The notes under the pieces are model-generated. The model worked only from the letters and a program-made list of their open reading frames with translations, was not told the DNA's origin and did not search any database. Shown piece by piece: positions 6,754 through 17,580 of a stretch of 64,000 nt of DNA. Each line of letters starts with the position of its first letter. Positions within the stretch are counted from its first letter, which is position 1. This DNA comes from a phage, in sequence record NC_042307.1; one strand, written 5' to 3'. A program made the position numbers and the translations under genes.

Positions 6754-7506
6754 TTACACCTTCCCCATGTCTTTAAAAATATCGTAGAATGCTTTAGACT
6801 CAGCAGAACGAACGTTATCAATCAATTCGATCATTGAGAATGGAGCATTTTCATATTTCTCATAAACTTCCATAAGAAGTGCTAGACCTGAGTCACCTTT
6901 AATGTCTTTCTGAGCTATATCTCCGCAGATAATTAAACGGCAGTCTTGTCCTACACGAGTTAGGAGACAAACCATTGCCTCAACGGAAATATTCTGAGCT
7001 TCATCGACAATTACATAGGAGTTGTTGAAAGTTCTGCCACGAGCATGTTCTATAGCCAAAAATTTAATTTTCTGACGTTCGACATATCCCTTATAGGCAT
7101 GATCACCGATGGCCCATTTCATACCATCAGCTATTGGCTCCAACCAAGGCTCTAGCTTTTCTGCTAGATCACCAGGAAGCATACCAAGAGACTTACCTAG
7201 AGGTTCATTAGGACGTACGAGGATCACTTGCTCAATATCTGAGTGAATGTCTACGAGTTCCTGAGCTGCAAGAACAGACGGGATAAAGGTTTTACCTGTA
7301 CCTGGCTCACCGATACCCACAGTCACTGTGTTGTTCTTGATCATATTAATATATGATTTTTGCTCTCGGTTTTTACCTACTAGGGATTTAGCAACTGGGT
7401 TAGCGTAATCATTAGAAAAATCAGCCTGAATTACGTTATTCTCATATTTGTTGCCACGCTTTCTTGAACCATTGCGGTTCTCTCTTTTTTGACGTGCTTT
7501 TCCCAT
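6754..7506 (-). CDS. phoH: PhoH-like ATPase
   Basis: Walker A GIGEPGTGKTF, Walker B VIVDEAQN; start taken at ATG 7506 with AGGAG upstream (track start 7515 is GTG). Confidence 0.8.
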   Translation of the reverse strand: MGKARQKRENRNGSRKRGNKYENNVIQADFSNDYANPVAKSLVGKNREQKSYINMIKNNTVTVGIGEPGTGKTFIPSVLAAQELVDIHSDIEQVILVRPNEPLGKSLGMLPGDLAEKLEPWLEPIADGMKWAIGDHAYKGYVERQKIKFLAIEHARGRTFNNSYVIVDEAQNISVEAMVCLLTRVGQDCRLIICGDIAQKDIKGDSGLALLMEVYEKYENAPFSMIELIDNVRSAESKAFYDIFKDMGKV

Positions 7507-7748
7507 AAATAACACTCCTATAGTGTACTTCGCTTCTAACAGAGGATCAACAAAGAGATCTTGTTTATCAACTTACAAATATATTATAACAAGGTTTACA
7601 GCAAAAAGCAAGTATAATTTTAAATAAACCTATGATATTGCTTTTAAATAAAAAATTTACTTGCTTATAAAGGTAGAAATATGATACTAGATAATCATTT
7701 ATTTATATGCGAAATATTACAGTATTAGATGGCGAAAGAAAATTTTAA

Positions 7749-7800: not shown

Positions 7801-8670
7801 GTGGAATGCCCGAAAAAATTAACTCAAGAAGAAGTAGATAAATGCCTAGCCGAGCGTGGTTTTACTATGGTGGATAAGCCATATCAAAATTCTAGGTATA
7901 GGCATACGTATCAGTGTGAATACGGTCACCAATGGACAGCTAAATTTGACGCTATTAGGAATGGAAAGACCAATTGTCCTACTTGCTCTATTAGTAGCCG
8001 TAAACTAGATATTGATAAAATTAATACTATATTACAGGACAGAGGTATTACATTGTTGAACGGCTATAAAAATAGTGCCGATATAAATACTAAATTTAGG
8101 TGTGTTTGTGGTCATGAGTGGGCTACTACACTTAATAGTATAATTAATAGAGGTAGTGGCTGCCCATCTTGTGCTGCTAATAAACAGAAACTTAGTGTTA
8201 ATACTATAAATGATCGTCTTGCTGCCAGAAATATCAGAATAGTGGGTGAGTATAGTAATGCGAATACTAAGACCGCCTTTCTTTGTGGTGCAGGGCATAG
8301 GTGGGAAGCTACTCCAGGGTCTGTATTAAGGGGGAACGGTTGTCCTTACTGTAGTTATAGAGATTTAGAAAGTACTAGGATATATGTTATGTATAGCCCC
8401 TCACATGGGGTTAAAATAGGTAGGTCTAACAATCCAGAGCGTAGACTTCTACATATTAGATCTAGTAGCCACCTTATTGATTTGGAAATAATTAAAGTAT
8501 TTGAAATTGGGGAATATAGTAGTGCAGTTCGAATAGAAAAATTAGCCCATAACTACTTTAAAGAGCAGAATTGCCAGTACAAAGATTTTGACGGCGCTAC
8601 GGAATTCTTCAATATTGAACCAAAAGTAGCTATAAAGTTTATCGAGGAAATAATCAATGACAGAGAATGA
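7801..8670 (+). CDS. putative homing endonuclease: three tandem zinc-ribbon repeats plus C-terminal GIY-YIG-like/T5orf172-like domain
   Basis: repeats ..GEYSNANTKTAFLCGAGHRWEATPGSVLRGNGCPYCS; C-terminal IYVMYSPSHGVKIGRSNNPERRL; GTG start; paralogous to 60056..60730. Confidence 0.5.
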   Translation: MECPKKLTQEEVDKCLAERGFTMVDKPYQNSRYRHTYQCEYGHQWTAKFDAIRNGKTNCPTCSISSRKLDIDKINTILQDRGITLLNGYKNSADINTKFRCVCGHEWATTLNSIINRGSGCPSCAANKQKLSVNTINDRLAARNIRIVGEYSNANTKTAFLCGAGHRWEATPGSVLRGNGCPYCSYRDLESTRIYVMYSPSHGVKIGRSNNPERRLLHIRSSSHLIDLEIIKVFEIGEYSSAVRIEKLAHNYFKEQNCQYKDFDGATEFFNIEPKVAIKFIEEIINDRE

Positions 8671-10483
8671 ATTAATTGAGAATTGCAAAGGTCTGCTCAC
8701 TCTAACTGCGGATAAGGACTTACAGCATAATAATGCTAATAAGCCTAGTGAGATGTTCCATACTCAAAGAGACTTATTGGCCGGAGAAATCAACAAATAT
8801 TTAGTATCGCAGGAATTACCCAAACATCTATTAGACGCCCATAATCTAGGTAAGATACACATTCATGATATGGATTACAGGGCGCAGGGGTACACTAACT
8901 GTTGCTTAGTAGACCTTGGTGGCATGCTGAAGAATGGTACTAAAATTGGTAATGCAAATATTGAAACTCCTAAATCCATAACTACTGCATGTGCAATCAC
9001 TGCTCAGATTATTGCCCAAGTATCTGGTGCTCAGTATGGTGGCACCTCTATTGATCGTATCGACGAGGTTCTAGCCCCGTATGTCAGAAAGTCTTACAAT
9101 AAACATCTGGGTCGTGGGCTACGTTGGCTCAAGGATGAAAGAAAAGCTGCTGTGTATGCTACTGAGCTTACTGAAAAAGAGTGTTATGATGCATTCCAAG
9201 CTCTAGAGTATGAAACTAATTCATTATTTAACTCTAATGGGCAGACCCCTTTTGTTACGCTTGGCTTTGGATTAGGTCAGGAGTGGGAGGAAAGGATGAT
9301 TCAGAAAGCCATCCTCCAAAATCGTATTAAAGGTTTAGGTGCTGCTGAGTCAACCCCTATCTTCCCTAAACTAGTATTCTCAGTTAAAGAAGGGTTAAAT
9401 AAAAATCCAGGCGATCCTAACTACGATATAAAACAGCTAGCACTTGAGTGTTCTGCTACCCGTATGTACCCAGACTATTTAAGCTATGAGAAAGTTGTAG
9501 CTGTTACTGGTGATTTTAAAGCCCCTATGGGTTGTCGTAGCTTTTTATCTGCTATCCCCTCCGGAGAAATTGCAGGGCGCAATAATTTAGGTGTAGTGTC
9601 TATTAATCTACCTATGGTTGCTGCTGAGGCAGATGGGGTTTTTGAAGATTTCTGGGATATTCTGGACAAATATGTGGATGAGGCTTTTGAAGCTCATGAT
9701 TTTTTCTTGGATAGACTTAAGAAAGTGAAGGCTAAACAAGCCCCTATTCTTTATATGCACGGTGGTTTTGGTGTGCGTTTAGATGGGGAAGAGTATGTAT
9801 GGCCTATTTTTGAGGGTAGATCTTCTGTATCTCTTGGATACATTGGGGTCTATGAGATGTGCCAAATAATGTTTAGTCTACCACAAACCCATAGGGATTG
9901 TATTGAATTTACAGAAGAAGTTCTTACTCACCTAAAAAATCGTTGCGAAGTTAAAGCTAATGAGACTAATCTTGGATTTAGCTTATACGCTACCCCTAGT
10001 GAGTCTCTATGTAATCGTTTTAATAAATTACTAGAACGTAGATTCCCAGAGTATTCTTGGTTAACAGACAAAGGCTATCTTACTAATAGTCACCATTTGG
10101 ACGTAAGAGAGAAGGTAGCCCCAGATACTAAATTTGAGTACGAAGCTCATTTTACCAAAATAGCTAATGGTGGTAATATATCGTTTGTGGAATTACCACA
10201 AATGAAAAAATTCCATAAAGCTCTTGAATACGTAGTAGATAAGGGACTAGAGTGTAGCCATTATATCGGTGTTAATATACCGATTGACGAGTGTTTCAAC
10301 TGTGGATATATGGGTGAATCTATTGCCTCTGAGCGTGGGTTTGTATGTCCAAGTTGTGGGTCTGAAGAAATAGAGGTTACACGTAGGGTTTGCGGGTACC
10401 TGGGATCCCCGGGCAGTAGGCCTTTCAATTCTGGGAAACAAAAAGAAGTGCTTGGTAGAGTAAAACACTTAAATCTTAAGTAA
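8657..10483 (+). CDS. nrdD: anaerobic ribonucleoside-triphosphate reductase
   Basis: 608 aa; C-terminal glycyl-radical motif RRVCGYLG and zinc site CPSCGS. Confidence 0.9.
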   Translation: MTENELIENCKGLLTLTADKDLQHNNANKPSEMFHTQRDLLAGEINKYLVSQELPKHLLDAHNLGKIHIHDMDYRAQGYTNCCLVDLGGMLKNGTKIGNANIETPKSITTACAITAQIIAQVSGAQYGGTSIDRIDEVLAPYVRKSYNKHLGRGLRWLKDERKAAVYATELTEKECYDAFQALEYETNSLFNSNGQTPFVTLGFGLGQEWEERMIQKAILQNRIKGLGAAESTPIFPKLVFSVKEGLNKNPGDPNYDIKQLALECSATRMYPDYLSYEKVVAVTGDFKAPMGCRSFLSAIPSGEIAGRNNLGVVSINLPMVAAEADGVFEDFWDILDKYVDEAFEAHDFFLDRLKKVKAKQAPILYMHGGFGVRLDGEEYVWPIFEGRSSVSLGYIGVYEMCQIMFSLPQTHRDCIEFTEEVLTHLKNRCEVKANETNLGFSLYATPSESLCNRFNKLLERRFPEYSWLTDKGYLTNSHHLDVREKVAPDTKFEYEAHFTKIANGGNISFVELPQMKKFHKALEYVVDKGLECSHYIGVNIPIDECFNCGYMGESIASERGFVCPSCGSEEIEVTRRVCGYLGSPGSRPFNSGKQKEVLGRVKHLNLK

Positions 10484-10490
10484 GCTAATC

Positions 10491-10529
10491 AGCCAGGTTG
10501 CTAGTCGACCTGGCTTTTATTTTATTTGC
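10491..10529 (+). terminator. rho-independent terminator after nrdD
   Basis: stem AGCCAGGT/ACCTGGCT then TTTTATTTTATTT. Confidence 0.7.
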
Positions 10530-10554
10530 TTTCAGCTAAAAATTTATGTATAAT
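10526..10554 (+). promoter_or_regulatory. T5-type early promoter TTGCTT-17-TATAAT
   Basis: followed by conserved ATAAATTTGAGAGG leader and ATG at 10583. Confidence 0.65.
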
Positions 10555-10582
10555 AGATTTATAAATTTGAGAGGAAAAGACT

Positions 10583-10960
10583 ATGAAAGTAAAACCCTAT
10601 ATCATTGTTTCAACCTGTGGGAGCTACCAATTAGCGGTAGAAACCATAGAAGAAGCTATTTTTGCTGCTACTGGTGATTATTCTCATCTTGAGGGGGTTG
10701 GTTATCCTACCATTATTGGTAATTGGGTGGAAACTAATTTAGATGTTAATCCATATAATTCTGATTATGAAGATGAAGAAGAGGTACAGGATAACATTGA
10801 ATTTGTATATAAAAGAATCTTAAGTATCTATGAGCATCAGGGCAGCCCTATTGAGTATGTGGATATTACTGAAGTAGCTAAGAAGCGCCTTAAATACGTT
10901 TATGCCAATTTTTCAAATGAAGACCTGGAAACAGTTGCAGTGGAGTTTAATAATGACTAA
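10583..10960 (+). CDS. hypothetical acidic protein (125 aa)
   Basis: ORF track; first gene after promoter. Confidence 0.5.
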   Translation: MKVKPYIIVSTCGSYQLAVETIEEAIFAATGDYSHLEGVGYPTIIGNWVETNLDVNPYNSDYEDEEEVQDNIEFVYKRILSIYEHQGSPIEYVDITEVAKKRLKYVYANFSNEDLETVAVEFNND

Positions 10961-11159
10961 GAATGTAAAACACCTTAAATATCGCTTAATTTACAACGGA
11001 CGTATGGAAACAGAAGACCTAGCTCAATTAGCTATTAATTCTAATGAGGTCACGGTACGTGCGTTAGCTATTGAAAAGTTGCGGGCTTCTTATGAAAGTC
11101 GTATTATGGAACTAGAGGAGAAACTTTATGGCATTCTCGAAGCCGATGCTACCCGATAA
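10953..11159 (+). CDS. hypothetical protein (68 aa)
   Basis: internal ATG of track ORF 10902..11159 chosen so that it overlaps the upstream stop (ATGACTAA). Confidence 0.4.
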   Translation: MTKNVKHLKYRLIYNGRMETEDLAQLAINSNEVTVRALAIEKLRASYESRIMELEEKLYGILEADATR

Positions 11160-11349
11160 TGGCTTAAATGCTGCGCTGGAAAATGCATTGATGCAGCAGT
11201 GGGAGGCTGGATATAAGGATGGGGTTGAATCTTGTGCAAAAATAATGGATATTATGGCTAATTCTGTAGTTGGGAAAGCCCATCCAGAAGTATCTGATAT
11301 ACTCCATAACCTTAGTAAAAACTTCAGAGAGCAGGTGAAAAATGCGTAG
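11128..11349 (+). CDS. hypothetical protein (73 aa)
   Basis: GAGGAG 7 nt upstream of ATG. Confidence 0.5.
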   Translation: MAFSKPMLPDNGLNAALENALMQQWEAGYKDGVESCAKIMDIMANSVVGKAHPEVSDILHNLSKNFREQVKNA

Positions 11350-12166
11350 ATTAATTATTATTAGTGGTGCAGGTTTGAGCGTTGAAAGTGGTGTACGAGC
11401 CTTCCGTACTGATACTGCTAGTGGTAAAGCATTGTGGGATGATTATGACTTAGAAGAGGTATGTAATATTCATGCCTTTCGTGGTAGCTTTTACCACAAA
11501 ACTCACGAGTTCTACAACAAACGTCGTGAAGAGTTAGAAACTGTTGAACCCAATCTTGCACACTTGCGTATTGGTGAGTGGTATAAACAATACCCAGGTC
11601 AAGTAGTAAACTTGACTACCAACGTTGATGACCTTATTGAGCGTGCTGGTGTTCCGCATAGTGACATTCTACATATTCATGGGTATTTAAAAGAGGTTGT
11701 TGTAGCTGACAGCTACAATAGCAGTAATAAACGAGTTATTGATGTTGGGTATAGCTCTATTGACCCGGATGATTATAAATGGGTTAAACCTAATGTAATC
11801 TTCTTTGGGGAGCATGCTCCAGCGTACGCAGAAATGTACAATATTTTTGATGGTATTACTAGTCAAGATATGATAGTTGTAGTTGGTTGCTCTAACCAAG
11901 TAATTAATTTCTACTGGGAATTATTTCCTATTCTTAACCGTACTGCTGCGAAACTTATGGTAGTTAACTACTATGATAGTGCCCTAGCGGCAGAACCAGG
12001 CTATCAAGGTATGACTCGTAGTGATATGTACCAACTGGAAGATCGTGGTATTCCTTACTGGAGTAAAGGTGCGGTAGATGCTTTCAGTGACCCTGGTTTT
12101 ATCGCTCGTGTAGAAGCTCATCTAGAGGGTAGACCTTATATGCCGGGGAAACAGACATGTCCATAG
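11342..12166 (+). CDS. SIR2-family (sirtuin-like) protein
   Basis: sirtuin motifs ISGAGLSVESGV..FR, LTTNVDDLIERAG, HIHGYL, KPNVIFFGE, VVVGCS; no Zn-ribbon cysteines. Confidence 0.6.
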   Translation: MRRLIIISGAGLSVESGVRAFRTDTASGKALWDDYDLEEVCNIHAFRGSFYHKTHEFYNKRREELETVEPNLAHLRIGEWYKQYPGQVVNLTTNVDDLIERAGVPHSDILHIHGYLKEVVVADSYNSSNKRVIDVGYSSIDPDDYKWVKPNVIFFGEHAPAYAEMYNIFDGITSQDMIVVVGCSNQVINFYWELFPILNRTAAKLMVVNYYDSALAAEPGYQGMTRSDMYQLEDRGIPYWSKGAVDAFSDPGFIARVEAHLEGRPYMPGKQTCP

Positions 12167-12339
12167 TTAAATCTGTGTATACACATCCTGATGATATATT
12201 TGTATGGGCGGATGGTAGTTGGTGTTATCGATGTGAGCTATGGGAAATGGACTATAAATCTGATGACTATGGTGTCATATATGTTGATACGGTTGAGTAT
12301 GATACGTTCTTAGCAAGGGACAAAAATGGAAATAAGTAA
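12157..12339 (+). CDS. hypothetical small protein (60 aa)
   Basis: ORF track. Confidence 0.4.
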   Translation: MSIVKSVYTHPDDIFVWADGSWCYRCELWEMDYKSDDYGVIYVDTVEYDTFLARDKNGNK

Positions 12340-12832
12340 TACTCCAATTATTTTTCTAGATATTGATGGGGTGCTCAACTCGAGCATCTCTCATCACCAT
12401 GCACCTAATGATGAAAAGATTTTCTTTGGAAGTGACTGGGTTTTTAAACCGCTTCTCAAGGCTTTTCAGGACTTTATTCGTCCTTCTCCAATAATGATTG
12501 TTGGGGTATCTTCATGGTTCTCTGTCAGGAATGAGATGGAGAACGTTCAGATTATGACCGGATTAGATCTTATCGATCGTTTTCTTGGTACAACGGATTT
12601 TACTGGTGGTGGGCTATCTAGGGGTAATTCTGTTCTTCGCTTCGTTGAAAAGTATAAGCTCAAACATTGGTGTGTGCTGGATGACGCTGGTGCTATGATG
12701 TATCAGTATCCAACGGTTATAGTCAATGGTAGAACTGGAATAAATCTTCAAGATTTAAGAGCTGTTAGCTATATGTTAGAATTTAGTCCAGATCTTGAAA
12801 TGTGTAAAGCCCTACAACAATTTAAGGTGTAA
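12326..12832 (+). CDS. HAD-superfamily phosphatase-like protein (possible nucleotidase)
   Basis: N-terminal HAD motif I IIFLDIDGVLN; AAGGGA upstream. Confidence 0.45.
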   Translation: MEISNTPIIFLDIDGVLNSSISHHHAPNDEKIFFGSDWVFKPLLKAFQDFIRPSPIMIVGVSSWFSVRNEMENVQIMTGLDLIDRFLGTTDFTGGGLSRGNSVLRFVEKYKLKHWCVLDDAGAMMYQYPTVIVNGRTGINLQDLRAVSYMLEFSPDLEMCKALQQFKV

Positions 12833-12834
12833 AT

Positions 12835-13263
12835 ATGTTTAATAATGTATTCTCTAAAGAAGCTAACCCAATATTGGTTAATTTTTGGCGTACTCTTCCA
12901 GACAACCTGTACAATGAGGCTATTAATGCCCTGAAAATATGGTGTGATAATAATGAAATCTCCTTTGCTTTTAGAGGTGAGGTTGAAGAATCTCCCTGTA
13001 TTGGTTTAATTGTGCAGGTAGAGGATGGTTTTGAAGAGATTGTCGGCTGGAAAGAGTTAGATGAAATGGGCTTGGTTTTTGCATTAAACTATAAGCTATT
13101 TATGCCCAATAAACACCGTATTGTTGTTAACTATAAAACCGGTGAATCTCCTGGTTTTCAAGTTAACGAACATTACGGTTGGTCTTACTCACCGGAAGAG
13201 GTAAATGATGGTATCCAGAAACTTCGTCGTTTTGGTTATCAAATTCCGGGTTTAACTGCCTAA
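12835..13263 (+). CDS. hypothetical protein, paralog A of a tandem pair
   Basis: 142 aa; shares a colinear motif series with 13273..13665, both ending ..PGL. Confidence 0.55.
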   Translation: MFNNVFSKEANPILVNFWRTLPDNLYNEAINALKIWCDNNEISFAFRGEVEESPCIGLIVQVEDGFEEIVGWKELDEMGLVFALNYKLFMPNKHRIVVNYKTGESPGFQVNEHYGWSYSPEEVNDGIQKLRRFGYQIPGLTA

Positions 13264-13272
13264 GGAGGCACA

Positions 13273-13665
13273 ATGGAACAAGTATACTGGCGTCAGATAG
13301 ACCCTAGTTTGGTGAAGCGTGCGGAGAAGCTGCTACAACGTTGGTTGGGGGTAAGACAAGCCTCCTTCACTTTTCCGGAGCAGCAAATAGACGATCCCTG
13401 TGTTGGTGTTTTTCTATCAGGCTACGCTGGGGAATGGGAATTGGATTGGAATGAATTGTCTGCTATAGGTCTAATTGTTGCCCTAAATTTCTCTTTGTTC
13501 CATCCACGTGGTTTGGCCATATGTCGTGTGCCTGAGGACGGTTGTTCGCCCCATCTTTTACAGGTGGAAGATGATATTTGGGAGTACACTCCAGATATTC
13601 TCAAAGAAGCCAAAGAACAATTAAACCGTGTTGGGATTTATGTTCCAGGCCTGAATGATGAATGA
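13273..13665 (+). CDS. hypothetical protein, paralog B of a tandem pair
   Basis: 130 aa; AAGGAGG upstream. Confidence 0.55.
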   Translation: MEQVYWRQIDPSLVKRAEKLLQRWLGVRQASFTFPEQQIDDPCVGVFLSGYAGEWELDWNELSAIGLIVALNFSLFHPRGLAICRVPEDGCSPHLLQVEDDIWEYTPDILKEAKEQLNRVGIYVPGLNDE

Positions 13666-13756
13666 TTTTTATTAGCTGAACTTTGTAATCCGGGCTATTA
13701 GTGCTCGGATTATTACATAATCTTTTCAGTCGATTGATAGTCAAAATAAATTGTCG

Positions 13757-13787
13757 TTGACAATTTGGATGGATTATGTAATAATAT
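13757..13787 (+). promoter_or_regulatory. sigma70-like promoter (TTGACA -35; -10 TAATAT-like) for the HNH gene
   Basis: TTGACA at 13757-13762; exact -10 placement ambiguous. Confidence 0.4.
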
Positions 13788-13804
13788 ATGTATTGGAGGT
13801 GAGG

Positions 13805-14257
13805 ATGTCATTCACACAGCAAGAACTTTTAGATAACTTCCGGTATGAAGAGGGTAAGTTATTTAGAACTACAGGAAGAAATGCAGGGAAAGAATGTTGT
13901 GTTTCTACGGGTAACGGATATTATCGTATATCTCTAGGGAATAGGACTATGCTTCGGCATAGAGCAATATTTTTAATGCATCATGGATACTTACCTGATT
14001 TAGTAGACCATGTGAATACTATAAAAGGTGATGATCGTATTGAAAATCTTAGAGAGCAGACAGTATCCGGTAATCTAAGAAATATCAAATATAAGAAAGG
14101 AATGCATGTTTACCCTTCTGGTAGTAAGAACTGGCAAGTGGTATTTACTATTAACCGTAAACGTATAGTTAAAGGAACATATGACAACTATGAGGTTGCA
14201 TGTTCTATGGCCAAGATGTTTAGAGGTCAATTATACGGTAGGGAATCAATCCAGTAA
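13805..14257 (+). CDS. HNH homing endonuclease
   Basis: MSFTQQELLDNFRYEEGKLF..GYYRISLGNRTMLRHRAIFLMHHGYLPDLVDHVN; GGAGGTGAGG upstream of ATG 13805. Confidence 0.7.
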   Translation: MSFTQQELLDNFRYEEGKLFRTTGRNAGKECCVSTGNGYYRISLGNRTMLRHRAIFLMHHGYLPDLVDHVNTIKGDDRIENLREQTVSGNLRNIKYKKGMHVYPSGSKNWQVVFTINRKRIVKGTYDNYEVACSMAKMFRGQLYGRESIQ

Positions 14258-14790: not shown

Positions 14791-17580
14791 GTGTTTTCTA
14801 TCCTCCAAGGTCACGCCGGATTTTCTCGTGATTTAGCAACAGGTATTTGGCGAGAAATCAAAGCGGAAGATTATACCTTTGCCAAGCGATTCTCGAAAGA
14901 GCATCCAGAAGGTAAACCAGCTTCTATGCCCTTCAAATTTGATGTAATAGAAGAGCACGACCCACAAAGCCTTGCCGAAATGTTACCCCTTATGAGACGT
15001 TTAACGTCTGATCCTCATATCGTTGCGGTACGAGGTCGATGTCTTGCACCAAAAAATAATGTGCGACGTAAGAAAGGTAACTTTAATGTATCTAATCCTA
15101 GTAATATTATTGCTATGGACGTGGATGGTATCCTAGATACCGGTGGGTACGACAAATTTAATCTTGTTGGTATGGCCCGCCACATTATTAAGATGTTGAA
15201 TAGTATTAGTGAGGATATGTTTCCTCTTGATGCAGGCTTTATAGCTCATGCATCGTCTTCGGCTGGGCTAAAACCAGGTATCCGAATGCACTTAATGCTA
15301 GAATCTAACGTCAAGGTAACTCAGGGTCAGCTAAAGTTCTTATTTACATCTATCAACGATAGCAGTAAGCAAAAATTTGGTTTTGATATTGCCGACCTAG
15401 CTTATTATTCATCTGTCCAGCTCCACTATTTTGCCGACCCCTTATTTAGCGATGGTATTGTTGATCCGTTTAAAGCGGAGAGTAAGCCACGTCTGGTGTA
15501 TGTTAAAGGTTCGAAAGTAAATTTGCCCAATAATCTGGTTGACTATGAAACAACTAGAGGGGAGTTTAAGGAAGAGTTTTATTCCTTACTTGATCAAATT
15601 AAAGGCAAAAAGATTGCTTCTGATAAAGTAGAAGAAACCATCAGCGAGTTAGAAGAGGCTGATGATGGAGTGTATTTGCGTATTATCCCCAAACTATATC
15701 ATAGAGCATTAGAGGATGGGGTTGATTTTGCATGGCTAGAACGTGAGATTAAACCAGCTTTATCTGAATATATTGCAACTAAAGATAACAGTCGTAATAT
15801 TCAAGATTACTTTAATAACGGTCGTAAGCAGGCTCTCAAAGCGTTTGTGAATAACTCCAAACGTGAGATTCCATTAAATCTGAAAGGTGTTCCACTTAAG
15901 AAATTAGAAGTGGATTCTCCACCAGAAGTTCCATACCTGAAGATTAACATTGTGCCCCCAAAAGGCCATATAACATTTGTTAAGGCAAGTCTTGGTACTG
16001 GTAAAACTACGGCAGTAACTAAATGGCTGGACGCAGGTGTTCTTCCTGGCAACTTTTTAGCAGTTACAAATACTAGAGCACTAGTGTCTTCAAATGCTAA
16101 GAAATTTAGTGCAGGACAATATGATAAGTCTGTAGATATGCTTAATTTCAAGCGTGGTGCTATTGACCGTATGTCCACAACTATTCACTCTTTGCACAAG
16201 TTTAAGAGTTTTATTGGTCAAATTGATGCAATCTTTATCGATGAATGTGATGCAGTAATGAATGACTTATTATTCGCCCCCGTTGTTAAACAACGTCGTG
16301 AATGTATTCAGGTTCTTCGGGATATTCTTGCAACTGCAAAAATAATTATATTATCTGATGGTGATATTAGTGCAGAAACAATTGAAGCCTATGGTTCTTT
16401 GATTGATTTTGATAAACCAGTAGCATTTTATAATCATCATCGTAAGATGCTGTCAAAAGCTCACGCTTATGAGTTTCCTGATGAATCCAGTATTTGGGTT
16501 GCACTTCAGACTTCTCTAGAAATGGGTGAGAAGTCCATTCTAGTATCTGATTGTGGGCCTGATGAGCTGAATGAGAAGGGTATGGCACTACGTCGTAATA
16601 CTGGTGCGTTAGTTAAGGAAATCCATTCAAACTCTACCTCAGATGTGGATATTCGACGTATTCTGGATTATACAACTAATGAGCTAATTGATCAACAAAT
16701 TGATTGCTTATTATGTAGTCCATCCGTAACGAGTGGCGTTGACTTCAACTATTTCGATAATGTATTTGTTATTACTAGAACCAGTAATCAGGCGCCGAAC
16801 ATGCGTTTCCAAGCAATCAGGCGCGACCGTGGTGCTCAGAACATCTATTATTTTATTGATAAATCCACTAGTGGGTTCTCCGCAGGTTCTGAACAATATA
16901 ATATTGATGAAGGTTGGCTGGAGTTAGCACAGCAATTATACGCACGTCGTAGAGAGCTGGAATCTAGAAACTATACTAGTACCTTACGTTATTATTTGCT
17001 TGATCAGGGCGCAACTATTGATATTTTCAGCGAAAGCTGGGGAACTATTGAAGGTGCTGGTAAAGAATATACAGAAGAGCGAATCAAAGCTATTCTGCAT
17101 TCAACTCCAGATTATTGTGCCCCACGTCATGCAGATGCATATGAAGCTAAACTACTTCTTGTTCGCTATTATCATCTTGAGTCTATTAAAGATGTAACAG
17201 TTGAGCATGTTGAACAATATATCAAAGATAAACCGAATGATCGAGCTGCATTCTTCCATAAGATGCACGAGATGTTCTGGGAAGATATTAAGAAGTGTTC
17301 AAATGTAACCATTAAACCATTCATAGAAGCTCTGAAAGGTAAGAAGAAAGACTTCTTCCTTAAAACAGGTCAGAGTGCTAACCCAAAATATGCTAGAATG
17401 TATCTTGGTATGATGGGTATTGGTAAGGATATGAACACTGAAAATATCGTAGACTGGTACAGAACCTATTGTAAAATCGAGTGTATGCCGATTCCTTTCA
17501 AATTCATGACTGACGAGGAAAAACATATGCATGATGAAGCAATGTCAGAGCTAGGTGCTAGAAATGACAGTGAAGAATAA
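14791..17580 (+). CDS. putative replication initiation / origin-binding protein with P-loop helicase-like domain (929 aa)
   Basis: Walker A SLGTGKTT, Walker B IFIDECD; GTG start with AGGAG upstream; size and position reminiscent of the T5 origin-binding protein gene. Confidence 0.5.
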   Translation: MFSILQGHAGFSRDLATGIWREIKAEDYTFAKRFSKEHPEGKPASMPFKFDVIEEHDPQSLAEMLPLMRRLTSDPHIVAVRGRCLAPKNNVRRKKGNFNVSNPSNIIAMDVDGILDTGGYDKFNLVGMARHIIKMLNSISEDMFPLDAGFIAHASSSAGLKPGIRMHLMLESNVKVTQGQLKFLFTSINDSSKQKFGFDIADLAYYSSVQLHYFADPLFSDGIVDPFKAESKPRLVYVKGSKVNLPNNLVDYETTRGEFKEEFYSLLDQIKGKKIASDKVEETISELEEADDGVYLRIIPKLYHRALEDGVDFAWLEREIKPALSEYIATKDNSRNIQDYFNNGRKQALKAFVNNSKREIPLNLKGVPLKKLEVDSPPEVPYLKINIVPPKGHITFVKASLGTGKTTAVTKWLDAGVLPGNFLAVTNTRALVSSNAKKFSAGQYDKSVDMLNFKRGAIDRMSTTIHSLHKFKSFIGQIDAIFIDECDAVMNDLLFAPVVKQRRECIQVLRDILATAKIIILSDGDISAETIEAYGSLIDFDKPVAFYNHHRKMLSKAHAYEFPDESSIWVALQTSLEMGEKSILVSDCGPDELNEKGMALRRNTGALVKEIHSNSTSDVDIRRILDYTTNELIDQQIDCLLCSPSVTSGVDFNYFDNVFVITRTSNQAPNMRFQAIRRDRGAQNIYYFIDKSTSGFSAGSEQYNIDEGWLELAQQLYARRRELESRNYTSTLRYYLLDQGATIDIFSESWGTIEGAGKEYTEERIKAILHSTPDYCAPRHADAYEAKLLLVRYYHLESIKDVTVEHVEQYIKDKPNDRAAFFHKMHEMFWEDIKKCSNVTIKPFIEALKGKKKDFFLKTGQSANPKYARMYLGMMGIGKDMNTENIVDWYRTYCKIECMPIPFKFMTDEEKHMHDEAMSELGARNDSEE

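Follow-up and report, generated by a model that had tools for sequence, protein, structure and literature searches.

Which reaction does a phage carry out with a sirtuin that has lost its zinc ribbon? The question is raised by the gene sir2 in a stretch of 64,000 nucleotides of the T5-like phage record NC_042307.1 (the window; its features are listed in Table 1). An earlier note, made from the sequence, had taken this open reading frame (ORF) for a SIR2-family protein without zinc-ribbon cysteines, encoded next to a HAD-type phosphatase, and had thought of host takeover through nicotinamide adenine dinucleotide (NAD+) or of the countering of NAD+-depleting defences. The answer has three parts: (i) the ORF encodes a genuine SIR2-family protein; (ii) its sequence indicates a catalytically competent, zinc-independent sirtuin, belonging to a phage-restricted clade derived from class III; (iii) for its function, an NAD+-dependent, Tpt1/KptA-like step in RNA-end repair is tentatively preferred, at a likelihood somewhat under one half.

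The product matches Pfam SIR2 (PF02146) with E=5.5e-24 and 85.5 bits (cutoff 24) over profile positions 1-178 of 180, i.e., over the whole catalytic core. It also matches PHROG 2162 'Sir2' (E=6e-120) and structures of E. coli CobB (E~3e-17). Family membership is thus beyond chance, and the limits given for the ORF are exact. The motifs quoted in the earlier note are all present, i.e., GAGLSVESGV (residues 9-18), TTNVDDL..AG (92-103), HG (113-114), VIFFGE (152-157) and VVVGCS (179-184). The Rossmann NAD motifs (GAGxS...FR, xxNxD, His-Gly, FGE, G-S) are complete, except that Thr stands in place of the Gln of TQNxD. The clade alignment used below has 25 members, 55-84% identical to the query. Besides the NAD-binding loop, its invariant residues are Y58, R61, R62, T92-T93-N94-V95-D96, H113-G114, K149-P150, F154-F155-E157, G182-S184, V187-I188-F190 and N209. 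Judged by these predicted motifs, the phage sirtuin is probably a real NAD-using enzyme, and an active one.

The loss of the zinc ribbon is confirmed. Residues 115-148, which lie between HG and KPNV, are free of Cys, the four ligands are found in no member of the 25-member clade alignment, and the whole product contains only C41, C183 and C273. In a set of 142 distant representatives, proteins with Thr in place of this Gln tend to be those without the zinc cysteines (27/9 vs 9/76, Fisher p = 5e-12), a test that takes no account of phylogeny and thus describes a signature of the clade and not independent events. Tyr-x-x-Arg is present in 35 of the 42 Thr-type proteins. A few distant relatives are zinc-free yet otherwise canonical and CobB-like (TQN, WFGE, VYPA); zinc loss alone is therefore no proof of a new activity.

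An AlphaFold2 model, for which the 25 clade members were the input, is confident (predicted local distance difference test, pLDDT, 84.8; predicted template modelling score, pTM, 0.84). In this model the former zinc module is a three-stranded sheet (strands 114-122, 131-134 and 147-152; pLDDT about 87-94). Foldseek places E. coli CobB first (template modelling score, TM, 0.84), then Sir2Af1 and SIRT5. The comparison figures are 21.2 for Sir2Af1, 19.1 for PfSir2A and 17-18 for Hst2, SIRT2, SIRT1 and SIRT4; they are 15.1 and 14.4 for SirTM, 13.9 for SIRT6 and 10-13 for the defence SIR2s (PsSIR2, KomC, HerA-Sir2, ThsA, Avs5). In NCBIfam, only CobB-type deacylase models were matched, all far under their curated equivalog cutoffs (101.9 bits vs 243; 91 vs 320). 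PADLOC gave no relevant match to defence-type SIR2 models, and the product matched no defence SIR2 profile with a sensor or partner domain. On the basis of NCBIfam, PADLOC, Foldseek and the comparison figures, sequence and model assign the phage protein to a derived class III (CobB/SIRT5-type) and not to the defence-type NADases.

It is very improbable that the protein acts as an NADase or as a protein ADP-ribosyltransferase in host takeover or superinfection exclusion. The defence SIR2 NADases (ThsA, DSR1/2, SIR2-HerA, KomC, Avs5) and SirTM have the superfamily fold in common with it, and the defence SIR2s are likewise devoid of the zinc ribbon. On the other side, the comparison of the model with SIR2 deacetylases and NADases puts it nearest to CobB, Sir2Af1 and SIRT5, and the sir2 locus has no Macro domain, adjacent or fused, of the SirTM kind. 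The defence NADase was set aside for want of a relevant PADLOC match. In the interpretation of the earlier note, family, zinc loss and HAD neighbour hold, and the emphasis on NADase activity and counter-defence finds no support.

The same matches raise another alternative, i.e., a CobB/SIRT5-type deacylase of protein lysines that depends on NAD+. It would act early in infection on proteins of the host or of the phage, with a probable preference for acetyl or for acidic acyl groups (succinyl, malonyl), and the HAD would be functionally unrelated. E. coli CobB, Sir2Af1 and SIRT5 are the nearest proteins by sequence and by structure, and the acyl pocket is kept residue by residue, including the equivalent of the Tyr/Arg triad (C41/Y58/R61), V95, V152, F155 and H113. 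The CobB residues Y92, R95, I131, H147, V187 and F190 map to Y58, R61, V95, H113, V152 and F155, in an alignment whose CobB sequence agreed with PDB entry titles at six of the seven positions that these name. The class III pocket is found in the form of Y58, R61 and a small residue, C41 (CobB Y92, R95 and A76), invariant in the clade. The alignment thus indicates that the acyl-lysine pocket, with its class III Tyr/Arg pair, is kept. The protein is acidic, as are CobB-type enzymes; a conserved partner is missing in many lineages, as would be expected of a self-sufficient enzyme; and the canonical zinc-free relatives are in line with a deacylase. Nevertheless, scores so far under the CobB equivalog cutoffs (91 bits against 320) speak against it, as do clade-fixed changes in the ribose-contacting Gln and in the peptide-stapling VYP motif. 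Compared with CobB, SIRT5 and Sir2Af1, the phage protein has no zinc ligands, has TTNVD for TQNxD, Cys41 for Ala and VI(N/D) for VYP, and carries a C-terminal extension of 60 residues. A deacylase would also leave unexplained why genes for RNA ligase, kinase and phosphoesterase recur in the operon of the sirtuin in two lineages far apart (see below). Moreover the host already has CobB, which was reported to restrict T4 and lambda (Koyuncu 2014), so that a phage copy would be counter-intuitive. Taken with these points, a deacylase is the main rival, a little less probable than the RNA-repair step.

For the RNA-repair step, we infer the substrate and both reaction steps as follows. The sirtuin would bind NAD+ and expel nicotinamide, and would then pass ADP-ribose to an anionic oxygen nucleophile. 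The likeliest nucleophile would be a phosphate monoester on damaged RNA, i.e., an RNA 2'-phosphate removed as by Tpt1/KptA. The adjacent capless HAD would either trim phosphates at RNA ends or dephosphorylate the ADP-ribose-phosphate by-product. This reading is favoured by an intact active site (GAGxSxxSGxRxFR, N94, D96, H113, FFGE and G-S do not vary in the clade, and confidence in the model is high) and by clade-fixed changes at the substrate site with reference to CobB: Q129 to T93 (TQNxD to TTNVD), A76 to C41 and P221 to N/D189 (VYP to VI(N/D)). It is favoured also by the lost zinc module, which forms half of the peptide cleft, and by the invariant Tyr-x-x-Arg-Arg pocket, a binder of anionic groups in class III enzymes. 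The chemistry of sirtuins and that of Tpt1 are parallel: with Tpt1 too, an oxygen nucleophile attacks C1'' of NAD+ and O2'' is used afterwards (PMC11417386). Tpt1/KptA would be a functional analogue only, since it belongs to the ADP-ribosyltransferase (ART) superfamily and not to the Rossmann sirtuins, and there is no sequence relationship.

The genomic context points to the same step. Neighbourhoods were surveyed at 64 loci: the window, 58 viral contigs and five annotated phage regions, one of them that of phiP4; the sirtuins form 25 lineages at 75% identity, and neighbours were clustered within 4 kb. In the rV5/Mydo group (5-7 lineages), Sir2 is surrounded by a calcineurin-like phosphoesterase, an AAA_33 P-loop kinase and a T4 Rnl1-type RNA ligase (PF09511), and the operon contains also a small ORF, a MazG-like enzyme and an ATP-dependent DNA ligase. 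As predicted from their families, these surroundings amount to a full RNA heal-and-seal kit. In locus L063 (607-kb jumbo-phage contig IMGVR_UViG_3300046665_000548, 3582-8029), with a Sir2 36% identical, a PF09511 RNA ligase lies three genes upstream. Orthologues linked to genes of this kind (RNA ligase, kinase, phosphoesterase) were found in the rV5/Mydo group and in L063, and RNA ligase genes around the sirtuin in two such distant lineages favour RNA repair. NAD-salvage genes are linked to Sir2 in two other lineages: NMNAT/ADPR-pyrophosphatase, NAMPT and Nudix genes beside it in phage BF, and NAMPT two genes upstream in locus L062.

The T5-like group (5 lineages) has the order PhoH, NrdD, small ORFs, Sir2, sometimes orf60, HAD (3/5), two DUF7415 genes and helicase, the DUF7415 pair being kept in all five. 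The inverted order HAD-orf-SIR2 is found in two T5-like variants (L070, L073); as both orders occur, the HAD/Sir2 pairing has survived rearrangement, and a HAD partner accompanying the sirtuin in either order is a further point for RNA repair. HAD_SAK_2 is found near Sir2 also in an unrelated 86-kb contig (L060). Among the other neighbours of Sir2 are a nucleoside 2-deoxyribosyltransferase-like gene (L061) and a DNA ligase (L059). L063 encodes also an arginase-family protein, and DxDxT HAD-like and P-loop kinase-like proteins, the last two recognized by eye and having no Pfam match.

As to distribution, the region 10500-13700 matched 444 phage records, mostly of Salmonella and Escherichia T5-like phages (Demerecviridae), with a DNA identity of 93.5% at most; the label 'Sir2-like protein' is found in many of these records. 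By tblastn the protein was found in 999 of 50,697 phage records, usually under the names Sir2 or NAD-dependent deacetylase, in T5-like, rV5-like, phi92-like, Mydovirus, KVP40-like and jumbo phages. A scan of 185,579 cellular species genomes with signature peptides of the clade gave five weak matches only, with the limit that exact peptide patterns are required and distant cellular relatives may escape. Judged by these sequences, the zinc-free clade is phage-restricted and essentially absent from cellular genomes, which fits a phage-specific task.

Much of this was already known. The rV5 annotation cites the T5 'putative Sir2-like protein' YP_006930. Skliros et al. 2016 noted in silico that Sir2/CobB of the Vibrio phages phiSt2, phiGrn1 and KVP40 has no zinc ligand, listed T5 among the Sir2 carriers, and proposed activation of acetyl-CoA synthetase (PMC5107563). 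These proteins are homologous to the present one (39% identity) and differ from it in the KVP40-type context, i.e., the td and topoisomerase region and no HAD. According to Iyer et al. 2022, most viral sirtuins form a distinct clade, and the sirtuin was proposed to be KptA-like and to remove RNA 2'-phosphates, a prediction that covers this locus type (PMC9503650) and counts in favour of RNA repair here. The explanation preferred above is essentially this prediction, re-tested rather than originated. In the BASEL paper, the mentions of 'deacetylase' concern tail fibres and not the sirtuin.

The type 3 of these authors (SP15; Iyer, Burroughs, Anantharaman & Aravind 2022), i.e., a sirtuin beside a Swiss-army-knife-type HAD in a proteobacterial phage, is what the window shows: the neighbourhood of SP15 is identical, with 90.8% DNA identity over 10500-13700. 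Their type 2 (rV5) context was recovered independently in the present survey. Two points go beyond their account: the HAD is not obligate in T5-like phages, and it is also found in NARP1-type operons without Sir2. The T5-type Sir2-like proteins (PHROG 2162; SP15, chee24, phiP4 gp152) are encoded by the same gene (93-98% amino acid identity to many T5-like proteins), in the same place between nrdD and the origin-binding helicase. With reference to phiP4, the window has one more ORF of 60 amino acids in the gap between sir2 and HAD and two nearby homing-endonuclease insertions, and nothing else substantial. Since the gene, its zinc loss and its HAD neighbour are published, as is the functional prediction, no new object is described here.

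The HAD gene merits a separate comparison. Its homologues (36-43% identity) are the first enzyme of operons that contain prs-like and NAPRTase-family genes, in three Vequintavirinae-type contigs. One of these, L071, is Serratia phage ChuuTotoro (ON287369.1, 35888-39104); a tRNA array lies just downstream of the operon, and no sirtuin was found within the 36 kb examined around it. NARP1 consists of Adps (annotated prs) and Namat (annotated NAMPT), i.e., genes 79-80 of Bas63; the prs-like and NAPRTase-family pair is therefore a NARP1 signature. The words 'HAD' and 'phosphatase' are absent from the NARP1 preprint. According to a January 2026 preprint (NARP1-AP), some NARP1 operons add a Macro-domain phosphatase of ADP-ribose 1''-phosphate (ADPR-1''-P), Adpp, against RES-type NAD+ phosphorolysis; the sections consulted describe only the Macro-domain phosphatase and do not mention HAD. 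By analogy, the HAD of NARP1-type operons could be a non-Macro counterpart of Adpp. The HAD family has two contexts, to which NAD+/ADP-ribose chemistry is common.

Sir2 and HAD might then form together an NAD+/ADP-ribose small-molecule module in an NAD-centred arms race, which would for example make or clear phosphorylated ADP-ribose species, the HAD replacing Adpp. This is unlikely, at a probability not much above that of an NADase. In its favour are the HAD_SAK_2 homologues at the head of NARP1-type operons in the three contigs, and the NAD-salvage neighbours of Sir2 in phage BF and L062. According to the NARP1-AP preprint, a phosphatase added to NARP1 defeats RES-type defence, though it is there a Macro domain; NAD+-rebuilding NARP3 can occur in T5-like phages. 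The fold comparison of the HAD gave no specific assignment. A 'reverse' sirtuin, i.e., one making NAD+ from ADPR-1''-P and nicotinamide, was also considered and was rejected on a rough thermodynamic estimate.

Several observations weigh against RNA repair. The HAD is absent from 2 of the 5 T5-like Sir2 lineages, and is no clean RNA-repair marker since it occurs in NARP1-type operons without Sir2 and its fold is unspecific. In the phi92-like group (6 lineages), the neighbours are only unknowns and DNA-related genes, with no RNA-repair gene among them, and Sir2 of KVP40 has no RNA-repair neighbour either. A profile search of the 64-kb window found no rV5-type RNA ligase (Rnl1), kinase, phosphoesterase or MazG. 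The heal-and-seal set (ligase plus 5'-kinase) is incomplete there, the HAD alone being present, so that no more than part of a healing pair would be available to a T5-type phage within this stretch. A function read from the neighbours carries less weight in phages, whose genomes place unrelated auxiliary genes side by side. Nothing has been lost from the hydrophobic acyl-lysine tunnel (V95, V152, F155, V187/I188), and each of the 25 lineage representatives has an acidic pI (4.6-5.6), which is not typical of RNA-end enzymes. Finally, the literature on phage and T5 sirtuins was found to hold annotations and predictions only, and no biochemical or genetic test. RNA repair and deacylation are close as explanations: context favours the former and sequence the latter.

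A wider form of the RNA-repair proposal can be put forward. The clade would have come to use a phosphate monoester (RNA 2'-PO4 or related) as nucleophile in place of acyl-lysine and would be a convergent, sirtuin-fold counterpart of Tpt1; the HAD would be the by-product phosphatase, separately recruited to NARP1 operons as a non-Macro Adpp analogue. As a whole this scheme is speculative, and we hold it for less probable than RNA repair taken by itself. It was partly predicted in 2022, and its novelty would lie in a demonstration and in the HAD-NARP1 link.

The position of sir2 in the window is that of a gene in an operon (Table 1). A strong terminator-like hairpin follows nrdD, and the next good promoter match is only at 13757; 10583-13665 is therefore one compact unit, which reads as three small ORFs, sir2, orf60, HAD and two DUF7415 paralogues. 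The sir2 ATG lies within the stop region of the upstream ORF of 73 amino acids (ATGCGTAG, 8-nt overlap), with an AGGTG Shine-Dalgarno-like site 5' of it. The HAD, found as the earlier note had said, begins 160 bp 3' of sir2 and belongs to the same operon, whose genes are translationally coupled. By type it is a 'Swiss Army Knife RNA repair' phosphatase, and its DxD motif (D12/D14) and D119/D120 are invariant. No Pfam match was obtained for orf60. Homologues of orf60 are found directly 3' of Sir2 in 3 Sir2 lineages, one of them outside the T5-like synteny group (L038/L039); phiP4 is without orf60, and its sir2 and HAD genes overlap directly. A tRNA scan of the window found none, hence no local link of sir2 to the T5 tRNA cluster.

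Some annotations in this region call for comment. The 92-residue profile PHROG 18062 bears the label 'Sir2 (NAD-dependent deacetylase)', yet it matches the C-terminal half of the HAD (residues 77-168, E=1e-57) and not the sirtuin; this label is an annotation error, and it is spreading, hence 'Sir2 (x2)' in many RefSeq records and the HAD of phiR2-01 named Sir2. The DUF7415 paralogues are named 'tail tube protein' in at least one record, that of phiP4, which looks wrong in a DNA-metabolism region. The two homing-endonuclease-type genes that flank the cluster look like recent mobile insertions, because the corresponding positions of phiP4 are without them. In the close relative phiP4, a YbiA-like protein (gp137, L005 1151-1600) is annotated some 11 kb upstream of sir2, and an NAD-dependent DNA ligase in split form (L005 20080-22024) some 8 kb downstream. 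YbiA is a member of the NADAR family, acting on ADP-ribose adducts.

Table 1. Coordinates of the sir2 unit, its sites, its flanks and the related HAD operons (window positions, except in the last three lines, where the positions are those of the locus named)
Feature	Position	Strand	Details
PhoH	6754-7515	-	upstream flank
Homing endonuclease	7801-8670		upstream flank; T5orf172/MUG113 type, repeated treble-clef zinc fingers
NrdD	8657-10483		upstream flank
Intrinsic-terminator-like hairpin after nrdD	10491..10515	+	upstream boundary of the unit; 10-bp stem, 6 GC pairs, then TTTTATTTT
Three small ORFs (125, 85, 73 amino acids)	10583..11349	+	open the unit; PHROGs 11748, 5236, 5827, unknown function
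sir2	11342..12166	+	274 amino acids; zinc-free sirtuin, predicted class III-derived
NAD-binding loop GAGLSVESGVRAFR (residues 9-22)	11366..11407	+	G9 A10 G11 S13 S16 G17 R19 F21 R22 invariant in the 25 clade members
Y58-N-K-R61-R62, class III Tyr-x-x-Arg pair	11513..11527	+	aligned to CobB Y92/R95; invariant in the clade
TTNVD (residues 92-96), TQNxD motif	11615..11629	+	clade-fixed Gln to Thr; Asn94 and Asp96 kept; invariant in the clade
Catalytic His113-Gly114	11678..11683	+	aligned to CobB H147; invariant
Zinc-ribbon small-domain remnant (residues 115-148)	11684..11785	+	no Cys; aligns with the CobB Cys155...Cys174/176/177 region
FFGE substrate/NAD loop (residues 154-157)	11801..11812	+	F154 F155 E157 invariant
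orf60 (60 amino acids)	12157..12339	+	overlaps sir2 by 10 nt and HAD by 14 nt; PHROG 5116 E=3e-29
HAD_SAK_2 phosphatase (168 amino acids)	12326..12832	+	minimal capless HAD; PF18143 E=3.7e-19
Two tandem DUF7415 paralogues (142, 130 amino acids)	12835..13263, 13273..13665	+	close the unit; PF24187 E=1.8e-33, 3e-30
HNH endonuclease	13751-14257		downstream flank; homing-endonuclease type, HNH_3
Origin-binding/D5-like helicase	14791-17580		downstream flank
HAD + prs-like + NAPRTase-family operon, L069	5001-8569
HAD + prs-like + NAPRTase-family operon, L071	6001-9217
HAD + prs-like + NAPRTase-family operon, L072	6001-9519

NAD+ is a central battleground between phages and bacteria: defences deplete it, and phages rebuild it via NARP1, NARP2 and NARP3. 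An NAD+-consuming sirtuin is nevertheless encoded by the phage itself in about 2% of the phage genomes on deposit. What remains of value is the biochemical question on this sirtuin, together with the link of HAD_SAK_2 to NARP1 operons. If the enzyme were a deacylase, phages would edit the host acylome. If it removed RNA 2'-phosphates, the sirtuin fold would be credited with a new type of catalysis, and phage RNA repair with a further arm against defences that cleave tRNA.

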